Source: Chloroflexota bacterium
GTDB lineage: Bacteria > Chloroflexota > Dehalococcoidia > Lucifugimonadales > UBA3495
DNA: 64,000 bases
NCBI GenBank assembly: GCA_028875055.1
Contig: JAPPGG010000069.1
Span: 1,140-65,139, forward strand
Direction of reading: 5' to 3'
The notes below the pieces were generated by a model. It was not told the DNA's origin and ran no database searches. It was given only the letters and a program-made list of their open reading frames with translations. The first letter of the stretch is position 1; every line of letters begins with the position of its first letter. A program made the translations under genes and the position numbers. This document shows positions 52,643-54,486 of this stretch, in pieces.

Positions 52643-53269
52643 TCAGCTGACCTGGAAAACCCACACCTGGTGCATAACTTCAGGTTCTCCTTTTGGCAAC
52701 GGGTAATAGGCGTCGGAGACTTCCACCAGCTTCCATAGGCCGGCAGACTCAAGGGATTCCAACTTGTCCTTGAAGCCGTTTTCCAGGTATGTGTCAGTCC
52801 TCAGGCTGAAGACGATGTGGCCGCCTGACCTTACCACCCGGACCAATTCATCAATGGAACTGGCAGGAGCGTGGCCCTGCGTGAAGACACCCACGATGAC
52901 CGAGGCATCGAACTGGTCGGTTGCATAGCCCAGTTCCTCGCCCATAGTCATCTGGTCCAGTCCCTGGTAGATGTTCTTCCTCCGGGCGACTTCCAGCATG
53001 CCTTGCGACAGGTCCATCGCCGTCATGTTGCGGAAACCCAGCTGGTGAAGGCACTCACCAACCAGGCCGGTTCCCGCCCCGGCGTCAAGGATGGATGCGT
53101 CTGTTGCCACGTGCTTGGCCAGGAACTCGGAAGTTCGCTGGGGAGAAATCCAGCCGTAATCGCTCTCCAGGTCGGCGTCGTACTCCTCCGCCCACTGGTC
53201 ATAGCGTTCTTCCAGTTCCTGCTCATTCTGAGAGGAATACACCCATTGGACGCGATCATTCTGTGTCAT
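52643..53269 (-). CDS. Class I SAM-dependent methyltransferase (YDxWAxxYD type)
   Basis: YDQWAEEYD, LDAGAGTGLVG, DLSQGML, GVFTQGHAP. Confidence 0.9.
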   Translation of the reverse strand: MTQNDRVQWVYSSQNEQELEERYDQWAEEYDADLESDYGWISPQRTSEFLAKHVATDASILDAGAGTGLVGECLHQLGFRNMTAMDLSQGMLEVARRKNIYQGLDQMTMGEELGYATDQFDASVIVGVFTQGHAPASSIDELVRVVRSGGHIVFSLRTDTYLENGFKDKLESLESAGLWKLVEVSDAYYPLPKGEPEVMHQVWVFQVS

Positions 53270-53312
53270 TACTTACCTCGATGTGCGTCGGCCGCGGAAG
53301 ACAGGCGCGGAC

Positions 53313-54134
53313 CTATTTCTTGCGGCAGACGAACATTGCCCACCCAAGTTCCTTGTTGTCCACTGCCGCTGCGGTCTCCTTGTAGGCCTCGGCCAGGTAG
53401 GCGAACCGCTCCCGGTGCTCTTCGTTGCCCCTGGAAGCGGCGTCGCTGAGCATCAGGTAGCTGGTCTTGAGGTGCCGGGAAATATCCTCGGCCTCCAGTA
53501 CCTCAAAGCCCGCGTCCTTCAATGCTACCTGGTAGGACTCGAAGGAAAAGTCCGTGTCGAACAACAGGCGCTCGTACACAAACTTCACAGCCTTTTCGCT
53601 GATTTCCGGCTGGGGCTTGATGAGGTCGTCAAAAACGAAAATCCCTCCGGGCTGCAGGACCCGGTACACCTCTTCAAGGACCTTGATCTTGTCAGGGACG
53701 TGGTAGATGGTGGCCTGGCTCCACGCCCGGTCAAATGTCTCGTCCTGCAGGGGCAGGTCGGTGGCGGAACCCTTCTTGAAGCTGACCTTCTCCCTTACTT
53801 CTTCCGGATGCTCATCGAGGGAATCGATGGCGTTGGCAATGCGGACGCCGCTCAAGTCCACCCCGGTTATCTGGCAGCCCACTTCCTTGCAGAGGGCTAT
53901 GGCGGTTGTGCCGCTGCCGCAACCCACGTCAATAACGTTGGAGTCGGCGTGCAACTGCCCGCGCCGGGCCATAACCTTGTTCAGGTTGGAGCCTGCCTCA
54001 AGGAAGGTCATGTTGGCGCCGTCTTCGAACAAACCCCAGTGGACGCTGCCGTCCTTGTCCCATAGAGCCCGGTAAACAGCATCTTCATGGTCGTAGTATT
54101 GTTCGGTTTCTGACTCGTTAAACTGCAATTGCAT
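53313..54134 (-). CDS. SAM-dependent methyltransferase resembling sarcosine/dimethylglycine N-methyltransferases
   Basis: YYD...Y...W...[45 protein letters not shown]...K. Confidence 0.85.
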
Positions 54135-54486
54135 TTTCGATCTCCGTCAGATAATAGTCGAACTCGTTGTCATCGGTAACCAGGATGGCCTTGGGCCGGA
54201 CCGGTTCGTCAGTAACCTCAAAGGCCATGATGATGACCTTGTTGCCGGGGTTGGTCAGCTTGGCTGCTGCTCCCTGCACGGAAATGATGCCGCTGCCCCG
54301 TTCGCCGGAGATGGCATAGGTCTCAAACCGGGCGCCGTTGTTAACGTCACAAACCAGTACCTTCTCGTACTCCCAGATATCCGACTTGTCCATCAGATTC
54401 TGGTCGATAACAATGCTACCAATGTAGCTCTCGTCGCAGTTGGTGACCGTCGCCCGGTGAATCTTGGACCTCATGAGTTGTCGCAT
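54118..54486 (-). CDS. panD: Pyruvoyl-dependent aspartate 1-decarboxylase family protein
   Basis: [14 protein letters not shown] self-cleavage site, [27 protein letters not shown]. Confidence 0.92.

Follow-up and report, generated by a model that had tools for sequence, protein, structure and literature searches.

A conserved trio of a divergent PanD and two methyltransferases in a SAR202 bacterium: a candidate module for the synthesis of N-methylated beta-alanine

Betaines can be built by repeated methylation of the amino group of a small amino acid. In the route to glycine betaine two methyltransferases, GSMT and SDMT/DMT, share three successive N-methylations (ApGSMT and ApDMT of Aphanothece halophytica are an example), while in the plant route to beta-alanine betaine one N-methyltransferase gene suffices, according to the accessible text of the same source (PMC9699165), which also lists [M+H]+ m/z 132 for this betaine. 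Beta-alanine betaine has also been detected in marine communities, where it gains methyl groups derived from S-adenosylmethionine, and labelled methyl groups enter it in microbial communities of the North Pacific; the accessible part of this report cites only the plant pathway (PMC9321204). Our literature search found no description of bacterial or microbial genes for beta-alanine betaine synthesis, and in the portions of the papers it returned the plant enzyme is the only one cited. Finally, DsyGD of Gynuella sunshinyii couples a methyltransferase to a decarboxylase for the synthesis of an osmolyte in marine microbes, as described in the accessible text of PMC11306096.

The DNA studied here, hereafter the window, is a stretch of 64,000 nucleotides on one contig (C75) of a marine, sponge-associated SAR202 bacterium. 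The listing of its open reading frames contains three successive genes, all on the minus strand, that encode a PanD-type decarboxylase and two methyltransferases, which we call MT1 and MT2 (Table 1). The first two genes overlap by 17 nt (54118-54134), and the spacing between MT1 and MT2 is 43 nt. On account of the overlap, the short gap, the conserved promoter-like site and the hairpin with a T-rich tract after MT2, we infer that the three genes form a single operon. The genes panB and panC are on other contigs (C50 and C68) and thus not near the trio, and the panD of the window is the sole PF02261 match in a genome that is 98.4% complete. An earlier note on this DNA had described the three-gene set, the 17-nt overlap and the distance from panB and panC, all of which are borne out; the second panD for which it recommended a search was not found in this genome.

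Table 1. Features of the panD-MT1-MT2 locus, in coordinates of the window.
Feature	Coordinates	Strand	Description and basis
panD	54118-54486	-	122 aa; predicted pyruvoyl-dependent L-aspartate 1-decarboxylase, module-linked subclade; E. coli position 72 is Q (family scores, residues)
MT1	53313-54134	-	273 aa; predicted class I SAM-dependent methyltransferase, RebM/MitM/SDMT/PMT fold (sequence matches, AF2 model, Foldseek)
MT2	52643-53269	-	208 aa; predicted class I SAM-dependent methyltransferase, METTL27/WBSCR27-like (sequence match, AF2 model, Foldseek)
Promoter-like site TTGACA-17-TATTAT	54899..54927	-	11/12 consensus positions; TTGACA invariant in alignment
Leader core CCCTGCGAGCATTAGC	54687..54702	-	Invariant; inside long 5' leader
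Terminator-like hairpin after MT2	52567..52608	-	GAGGCCTCACC...GGTGAGGCCTC then GGTTCTTTG (read in sequence)

On balance, we take the trio to be a biosynthetic module for N-methylated beta-alanine, whose product is most likely the quaternary beta-alanine betaine. In the first step, the PanD proenzyme would cleave itself between G23 and S24, generating the pyruvoyl cofactor, and would then convert L-aspartate to beta-alanine by decarboxylation, as its intact family residues suggest. In the second step, to which the gene linkage and the folds point, MT1 and MT2 would use S-adenosylmethionine to place up to three methyl groups on the amino group of beta-alanine, splitting the successive methylations as the GSMT/SDMT pair does for glycine. 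Synthesis of the betaine in this way would need neither choline nor oxygen, and the sponge-associated bacterium would use the product either as a compatible solute or as a methyl-rich metabolite. Since it is the only one in the genome, the same PanD may also supply pantothenate synthesis. A separate GSMT-like/SDMT-like pair is encoded on contig C26 of the same genome, so that MT1 and MT2 are not its glycine-betaine enzymes; a paralogue on C26 scores 187.4 bits on NF041675, more than MT1.

The best curated family for MT1 is the sarcosine/dimethylglycine N-methyltransferase family NF041675, in line with the resemblance pointed out in the earlier note; however, with a score of 112.2 bits against a cut-off of 550 MT1 resembles the SDMT family at the sequence level but is not a member of it. 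The AF2 model of MT1 (pLDDT 92.2) retrieves AtmM (Foldseek TMq 0.86), the putative Galdieria SDMT 2o57 (0.84) and the phosphoethanolamine N-methyltransferases of Plasmodium (0.77-0.80). Its structural neighbours thus include makers of quaternary amines (the putative SDMT and the phosphoethanolamine enzymes), but in sequence MT1 is closest, among solved structures, to natural-product enzymes, namely the aziridine N-methyltransferase MitM and the sugar O-methyltransferases AtmM and RebM, so that the fold does not by itself fix the N-methylation of a small amino acid as the activity of MT1. We propose MT1 as a beta-alanine N-methyltransferase.

MT2 matched only generic class I methyltransferase models in profile searches, with 27.9 bits on NF041675. 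Its closest solved relative is human METTL27/WBSCR27 (PDB 7qcb, E 7e-23), which is also the first-ranked Foldseek match of its AF2 model (pLDDT 89.5; 31% identity, TMq 0.71): MT2 is METTL27/WBSCR27-like both in sequence and in fold. To our knowledge METTL27 is an orphan enzyme without a known substrate, and a literature search on METTL27/WBSCR27 returned no apparent substrate study. We propose MT2 as the second N-methyltransferase of the module. For both proteins, the look-alikes in the ESM Atlas belong to generic methyltransferase clusters only.

Comparison of gene neighbourhoods indicates that the trio is a conserved module. The full set of PanD, MT1 and MT2 is encoded on one strand at 74 of 80 further Dehalococcoidia loci, three of them with the gene order PanD-MT2-MT1, and a complete trio is present in a genome of a different order (G103); lack of conservation, which the earlier note had named beforehand as evidence against its idea, is thus not what we found. 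Sponge symbionts carry the module, as do many SAR202 genomes. The two methyltransferases are adjacent or fused and are inherited together: both are present at the 74 loci, and fusions of MT1 with MT2 occur in P0121, P0122 and L112. In P0121 and P0122 the identity to MT1, across 99% of the MT1 length, is 46% and 44%, and that to MT2 is 39% and 37%. On a cyanobacterial contig (identified by a psbD match of 784 bits), panD directly follows a fused MT1-MT2 gene. Fusions of PanD with MT1 (P0129-P0131) were seen only as database proteins, and a single inserted or deleted base in the overlap could be enough to produce them.

Variants of the module bear on the nature of its product. Five genomes have a second PanD-MT1 pair, which at all five loci (L025-L029) lacks MT2 and is followed by a gene for a remote ATP-grasp ligase; the product of this gene is conserved, with a length of 305-331 aa and weak matches to Ddl, RimK and cyanophycin synthetase, and the same gene follows MT2 at one further locus (L024). 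These pairs suggest that some versions of the module lead to a product other than a betaine. They also agree with a scheme in which the pathway begins at beta-alanine but yields no free betaine osmolyte, either because mono- or dimethyl-beta-alanine is ligated as a building block or because a methyl ester is formed. The natural-product tailoring enzymes that are the nearest solved relatives of MT1 point in the same direction, as does the cyanobacterial locus, which adds a dioxygenase gene upstream of the fusion and a third methyltransferase. We regard such an outcome as rather unlikely: a query derived from the variant cluster did not retrieve the ATP-grasp gene from the genome of the window, most trio loci lack that gene, the neighbours examined include no polyketide or nonribosomal peptide genes, and two distinct methyltransferases for a molecule with a single amino group are what stepwise N-methylation would call for. 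The dioxygenase is a neighbour of the module at one locus only; a search near the SAR202 modules found no dioxygenase like it, and the corresponding search for the third methyltransferase gave only weak matches (26-31% identity), which fall on MT1-family genes.

The distribution of panD was studied in an order-level sample of 41 genomes (the genome of the window and 40 relatives from the same order), in which an identity of at least 50% defined an orthologue of MT1. In this sample panD is present in 25 genomes, which are exactly the 25 that have an MT1 orthologue, and neither gene is present in the other 16; panC instead occurs in 38 genomes, including 14 of the 16 without panD. By comparison of coordinates, 31 of 32 panD genes are placed within 1.5 kb of an MT1-family gene. 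If panD were a plain housekeeping gene for pantothenate and CoA, with the methyltransferases merely co-transcribed and acting on an unrelated substrate, it would be expected to track panC rather than MT1. The presence of a single panD in a genome with both panB and panC, and a PanD score above the equivalog cut-off, fit this simple explanation, but we find it improbable also because the linkage outlasts a change of gene order, a duplication, the passage to a different order of the class, and that to a different phylum with fusion of the methyltransferases. Likewise, in a sample of the class panD is found in 104 of 151 genomes and a strong match to MT1 only in G000 and G103, whose PanDs each adjoin MT1 and are the lowest-scoring full-length ones of the sample (136 and 127.5 bits versus 147-176). 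In the PanD tree, 33 module-linked sequences group together in a single clade (support 100/96), apart from 15 canonical PanDs of Dehalococcoidia and from 14 PanDs fused to PanB or PanC, a separation that is again at odds with a plain housekeeping role. The earlier note had also called for a phylogeny of the decarboxylase; the part that concerns PanD is the tree just described, while the comparison with DsyD that it had in mind involves a different family, PF04115. A PLP-dependent decarboxylase (PF00282) was considered as an alternative source of beta-alanine and rejected: it is present in the genome of the window, but in only 4 of the 16 relatives without panD. Overall, the route from aspartate through beta-alanine to its betaine, one of two options in the earlier note, is favoured by the conservation of the trio, by a panD that tracks MT1 and not panC, by the cyanobacterial MT1-MT2 fusions beside panD, and by the distinct PanD clade.

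To judge from scores and residues, the PanD of the window genuinely belongs to its family, with 136.3 bits on PF02261 (cut-off 25) and 122.4 bits on TIGR00223 (cut-off 106). Its alignment to M. tuberculosis PanD (2c45) is gap-free over residues 1-95, and it was also aligned with 1ppy; the residues K8, H10, Y21, G23-S24, R53, T56 and Y57, which correspond to K9, H11, Y22, G24-S25, R54, T57 and Y58 in E. coli numbering, are present. Together with G73, A74 and A75, also present, these are positions described as strictly conserved or substrate-binding in PMC3314653, where the list of strictly conserved residues, in its accessible form, does not include Asn72. It is at this position that the protein differs: E. 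coli and M. tuberculosis have 'NGAAA', and the window PanD reads 'SVQGAAA', with Q in place of N72. Both the retention of the Gly/Ser cleavage site with the Lys, Arg and Tyr motifs and the change from NGAAA to QGAAA had been recognized in the earlier note, and the alignment confirms them. The pattern is general: across 92 module-linked PanDs, each of the K, H, Y, G, S, R, T and Y residues is retained in 91 or 92 sequences, and position 72 is Q in 90.

The replacement of N72, the divergent clade and the lower family scores could all reflect a PanD-like enzyme that acts not on aspartate but on another substrate, such as glutamate or 3-methylaspartate, in which case the module would produce another methylated amine, for instance gamma-butyrobetaine. 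CrpG of cryptophycin biosynthesis, a PanD homologue that acts on 3-methylaspartate, counts in favour of this idea, and so does the dioxygenase of the cyanobacterial locus: its three NCBIfam matches are TmpA, gamma-butyrobetaine dioxygenase and trimethyllysine dioxygenase, all names that denote trimethylammonium substrates, and its score on the gamma-butyrobetaine dioxygenase model is 229.7 bits, under the cut-off of 414.75. We nevertheless consider a change of substrate quite improbable. R54, which according to the accessible literature contacts the beta-carboxylate of the substrate and sets specificity, is present in 92 of 92 sequences, and K9, T57 and Y58 are each present in 91 or 92 (Thr57 is required for activation, as stated in the accessible text of PMC3975893). 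The role given for Asn72 in the same literature is one in processing, through a hydrogen bond to Ser25 in the zymogen, and Q retains the amide; moreover, the two cyanobacterial module PanDs retain N.

The other option of the earlier note, a split DsyG/DsyD-like route to DMSP in which one methyltransferase would S-methylate MTHB and the PanD-like enzyme would decarboxylate DMSHB, has in its favour only the general likeness of a methyltransferase and a decarboxylase in a marine organism and is scarcely credible, because DsyD is a PF04115 ureidoglycolate-lyase-like domain (and not, as that note had it, an aspartate-decarboxylase-like one), a scan of the three proteins at E up to 0.01 gives no PF04115 match, the tested methyltransferase-PF02261 fusion (a DsyG-like protein of Porphyra umbilicalis with PF02261 at its C-terminus) is reported in the accessible text of PMC11306096 to be without both MTHB S-methyltransferase and DMSHB decarboxylase activity, and DMSHB has its 2-hydroxyl where a pyruvoyl enzyme, by the mechanism outlined in PMC3975893, needs an amino group to form the imine.

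The sequences around the operon may contain elements that control it. The panD start codon lies ~410-430 nt downstream of the promoter-like site, TTGACA-17 nt-TATTAT, which is the sole such site in 52000-55200; shuffled sequence gives a mean of 1.2 sites, and therefore the match alone is not significant, but its TTGACA is invariant in an alignment of 11 upstream regions (A2). The 5' leader of panD would extend from 54487 to about 54898. Within it, the exact core CCCTGCGA[AG]C[AC]TTAGC is found upstream of panD in 33 of 92 panD loci, including lineages whose PanDs are only 55-67% identical, and in the genome of the window it occurs once at no more than one mismatch (a control pattern occurs 0 times). 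The core may function as an operator or as an RNA element. A search of Rfam with 52000-55600 gave no match at E up to 1, and RNAalifold returned no supported consensus structure, either for 23 sequences around the core (2 invariant pairs only) or for 14 whole leaders (18 pairs, 1 with a compensatory change). The hairpin and T-rich tract that follow MT2 were read by eye; the loop is longer than the limit of the consensus scan, which for this reason did not report it.

Both in the dark ocean and in sponges, SAR202 bacteria rank among the most abundant cells. It is possible, though we put it forward as a tentative claim, that they and some cyanobacteria make beta-alanine betaine by means of a divergent PanD dedicated to this purpose, together with two N-methyltransferases that had not been characterised before. 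If so, these would be the first microbial genes for a seawater metabolite without a known microbial source, and a gene marker would allow metagenomes and metatranscriptomes to show the producers of a solute rich in nitrogen and methyl groups. The orphan METTL27 family would gain its first substrate class, small amino-acid amines, and with it a lead to METTL27-like function, and the invariant leader core could act as the sensing part of a new regulatory element that serves the pathway. The module would also offer a compact three-gene route to osmoprotection for engineering, independent of oxygen and choline, and a case in which PanD, a vitamin-pathway enzyme, has been drawn into a second pathway and forms a clade of its own there.

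These results can be set against the known systems. The module PanD shares with the canonical enzymes of E. coli and M. tuberculosis the family, the self-processing site and the catalytic and substrate-binding residues; unlike them, it has Q for N72, forms a separate clade, scores below the other PanDs of the class, and is linked to methyltransferases and not to panB/panC, with a distribution that follows MT1 and not panC. METTL27/WBSCR27 (7qcb), unlike its relative MT2, is an animal protein. The phosphoethanolamine N-methyltransferases of Plasmodium, plants and nematodes are relatives of MT1 in fold (TMq 0.73-0.80) and carry out repeated N-methylation up to a quaternary amine, but they are only 16-23% identical to MT1, their substrate bears a phosphate, and the plant and nematode enzymes have two domains. 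DsyGD resembles the trio in the coupling of methyltransferase and decarboxylase, but its decarboxylase is PF04115 rather than PF02261 and, in the accessible text of PMC11306096, its substrates are sulfur compounds. With BANMT of Limonium latifolium the module would share the SAM-dependent chemistry that leads from beta-alanine through N-methyl- and N,N-dimethyl- to trimethyl-beta-alanine, and the plant gene has no linked PanD. We take BANMT to be related to the caffeic-acid O-methyltransferases (O-methyltransferase family 2, PF00891); neither MT1 nor MT2 matches PF00891 at E up to 0.01, so that this likeness is one of analogy and not of homology. As in the GSMT and SDMT/DMT route to glycine betaine, adjacent genes encode two distinct class I methyltransferases that depend on SAM and are proposed to share the three methylations of a small amino acid; unlike in that route, MT1 falls outside the SDMT family, MT2 resembles METTL27 rather than GSMT, the host has a separate GSMT-like/SDMT-like pair, and the decarboxylase that would make the substrate is itself part of the module.

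Within its order, the panD-like gene follows the methyltransferase gene MT1 and not the pantothenate pathway. In a set of 41 genomes, comprising the genome that carries the window and 40 relatives of the same order, orthologues of MT1 (at least 50% identity) occur in 25; these very genomes, and no others, have panD, and the remaining 16 have neither gene. Since the two sets coincide and panC is found in 38 of the 41 genomes, including 14 of the 16 devoid of panD, we conclude that it is the methyltransferase that panD accompanies. By coordinate comparison across the same set, 31 of 32 panD places lie at most 1.5 kb from an MT1-family gene, the exception being a second, very divergent copy in genome G008. 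This copy, at locus L135 (contig C15; 36% identity, 88.9 bits), has no methyltransferase neighbours, and its product sits on a very long branch of the PanD tree. Conservation of the trio extends to 74 of 80 further Dehalococcoidia loci, where PanD, MT1 and MT2 are co-stranded (three times in the order PanD-MT2-MT1); the other six carry MT1 alone (two), MT1-MT2 with no PanD within 6 kb (three), or end at a contig edge (one).

No panB or panC had been seen near the trio, and both indeed lie on other contigs. A second panD was looked for in the same genome (98.4% complete), and the window panD is its sole PF02261 match, so that CoA synthesis may draw on it for beta-alanine too. As the source of beta-alanine in the 16 panD-less SAR202-order genomes (G018, G020, G024-G027, G029-G035, G038-G040), 14 of them with panC, a PF00282 PLP-dependent decarboxylase does not suffice, being present in just four.

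The PanDs encoded beside the methyltransferases are also set apart by sequence. Among 151 genomes drawn evenly from the class, 104 have panD, and strong MT1 matches occur only in the window's own genome and in G103, a member of another order that has the whole trio. Their PanDs, each adjoining MT1, are the lowest-scoring full-length ones in the sample (136 and 127.5 bits, versus 147-176). In a tree of 70 sequences and 121 columns, all 33 module-linked Dehalococcoidia PanDs form one clade (support 100/96), which excludes both the 15 canonical Dehalococcoidia PanDs and the 14 PanB/PanC-fused ones; the deeper forks lack resolution because the columns are few.

The three-gene unit described in the earlier note, with its 17-nt PanD/MT1 overlap, is borne out by ORFs arranged head to tail, with 43 nt between MT1 and MT2 (see table). 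The 590-nt upstream intergenic region holds a single promoter-like site, whose TTGACA is invariant in an alignment of 11 upstream sequences, and 3' of MT2 the sequence itself shows a long hairpin with a T-rich tract behind it; from these features panD, MT1 and MT2 can reasonably be inferred to form one operon. A conserved leader of about 410 nt precedes panD. Of 92 loci, 33 have its invariant core upstream of panD, among them lineages with a PanD of just 55-67% identity; the window's genome has the core once. The core region has no Rfam match and the leader no supported consensus RNA structure; the core may be an operator or an RNA element. The MerR/excisionase-like and amidohydrolase genes on either side of the trio keep their synteny in genomes of one genus and in a single related genus (G021, L016) but are absent at more distant trio loci, and are therefore placed outside the conserved module. 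The window DNA is found in sponge metagenomes from two studies (shares 1.00, 0.39 and 0.28, the first possibly the source dataset), and its relatives bear the names SAR202 cluster, Dehalococcoidia and Chloroflexota.

Coordinates of the genes and sites discussed (L, comparison loci; all other positions refer to the window)
Feature	Position	Strand	Remarks
PanD-like gene	54118-54486	minus	ORF, 122 aa
MT1	53313-54134	minus	ORF, 273 aa
MT2	52643-53269	minus	ORF, 208 aa
Promoter-like site TTGACA-17-TATTAT	54927-54899	minus	upstream intergenic region
Leader region	54487-54927	minus	5' of panD
Invariant 16-nt core CCCTGCGA[AG]C[AC]TTAGC	54687-54702	minus	inside panD 5' leader
MerR/excisionase-like gene	52140-52544	plus	helix-turn-helix protein, 134 aa
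Amidohydrolase gene	55078-56637	plus	
SDMT-like and GSMT-like genes	L031:4211-6098		own genome, contig C26
PanD-like gene of G008	L135:4267-4560		contig C15
MT2-like and MT1-like genes	L136:1451-2898		G078, contig C181
ATP-grasp-like gene	L026:3061-3978, L027:2885-3880; L024:30-428		first two are examples; L024 copy follows MT2
L112 cluster	5038-9927 of L112		methyltransferase (304 aa), dioxygenase (373 aa), MT1-MT2 fusion (465 aa), PanD (152 aa, N72 kept)
PanD and MT1 genes	L114:385-1555		separate genes, 20-nt overlap

PanD scores above the curated equivalog cut-off (TIGR00223, 122.4 versus 106), and its alignment to the M. tuberculosis enzyme is free of gaps. The Gly/Ser cleavage site, the Lys, Arg and Tyr motifs and the Gln in NGAAA noticed earlier are all seen in the alignment: K9, H11, Y22, G24-S25, R54, T57, Y58 and G73-A75 (E. 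coli numbering) are retained, residues named strictly conserved or substrate-binding in the accessible text of PMC3314653. According to the available portions of PMC3975893, R54 binds the substrate beta-carboxylate and Asn72 hydrogen-bonds Ser25 in the zymogen. The sole departure among the key residues is Gln in place of N72; it retains the amide, and in our reading it marks the lineage and does not signal another substrate.

MT1 belongs to the class I methyltransferases, and its proposed likeness to SDMT stands insofar as SDMT is its best curated family, but the score is far under the cut-off (112 versus 550). The AF2 model (pLDDT 92.2) has full-length matches to AtmM, MitM and RebM, to a putative SDMT of Galdieria and to phosphoethanolamine N-methyltransferases, a group that mixes N- and O-methyltransferases. 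The closest match of MT2 is human METTL27/WBSCR27 (E 7e-23; 31% identity, TMq 0.71), for which we know of no substrate; among the papers listed for it, none was evidently a substrate study. On contig C26 the window's genome also carries two adjoining genes, the first SDMT-like (187 bits against a cut-off of 550) and the next GSMT-like (289 bits against 350), which probably make up a glycine-betaine pair of their own; its glycine enzymes are thus others than MT1 and MT2. G078, in which the search found no panD, has a distant MT2-like gene (26% identity) beside an MT1-like one (36%), candidates for a related pair of methyltransferases that act on some other amine.

Looking for longer proteins yielded two MT1-MT2 fusions, P0121 (493 aa) and P0122 (479 aa), whose MT1 domains are 46% and 44% identical over 99% of MT1 and whose MT2 domains are 39% and 37% identical (E 6e-41 and 5e-38). 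At L112, which belongs to a metagenome contig of 204 kb, such a fusion gene is followed directly by panD (PF02261, 127.8 bits); the locus is assigned to a cyanobacterium because of psbD (784 bits), 5 kb from the cluster, and 40.8% G+C. The cyanobacterial PanDs of the module keep N72 and form their own long branch, so the link between PanD and the methyltransferases has formed, or been re-formed, on more than one occasion. Ahead of the L112 fusion gene lie two more genes, for a third methyltransferase and for a TauD-family dioxygenase. The dioxygenase matches three NCBIfam models, all under their cut-offs: those for 2-trimethylaminoethylphosphonate dioxygenase TmpA (243.6 bits), for gamma-butyrobetaine dioxygenase (229.7) and for trimethyllysine dioxygenase (186.7). 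Each of these names implies a trimethylammonium substrate, and beta-alanine betaine would, as we reason, be the carboxylate counterpart of what TmpA acts on; being a single locus, this context carries little weight. Three proteins known only as database entries, P0129, P0130 and P0131 (389-394 aa; with 1, 5 and 8 members), look like PanD and MT1 joined in frame, which is suggestive only: L114, a related locus, has them as two separate, overlapping genes, and the gain or loss of one base within the conserved overlap, be it genuine or due to sequencing, would yield such fusions.

In the proposed pathway the PanD product, with one amino group and one carboxylate, would be N-methylated stepwise by two SAM-dependent methyltransferases, which fits because two different enzymes of this type are inherited together and at times fused. 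We give a little better than an even chance to an N-methylated beta-alanine as the product, with most of the weight on the full betaine. Some versions of the module may instead make a conjugate, since five genomes of the same genus (L025-L029) have a second PanD-MT1 pair devoid of MT2, followed in all five by a conserved 305-331 aa protein with weak, remote matches to ATP-grasp ligases; with the query used, no such gene was found in the window's genome. The solved relatives nearest MT1 are natural-product tailoring enzymes, which also speaks for other readings. A split DsyG/DsyD-like route to DMSP, also suggested earlier, fails on three counts: DsyD belongs to PF04115 according to PMC11306096, neither PanD, MT1 nor MT2 matches that family, and the only methyltransferase-PF02261 fusion assayed in that study, from Porphyra umbilicalis, had neither DMSP activity.

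As to the preferred product, beta-alanine betaine, our literature search (including SAR202, sponge and synonyms) found no description of bacterial genes for it; coverage of subscription journals and supplements was partial, so this absence is not proof. Papers from 2022 to 2026 (including PMC9699165 and PMC9321204), in their accessible parts, cite the plant methyltransferase route as the sole one. The module would represent a known kind of chemistry, in which successive SAM-dependent N-methylations lead to a betaine, but would do so through new enzymes and with the precursor step built in; its likeness to the GSMT/SDMT route to glycine betaine lies in the stepwise N-methylation by two methyltransferases.
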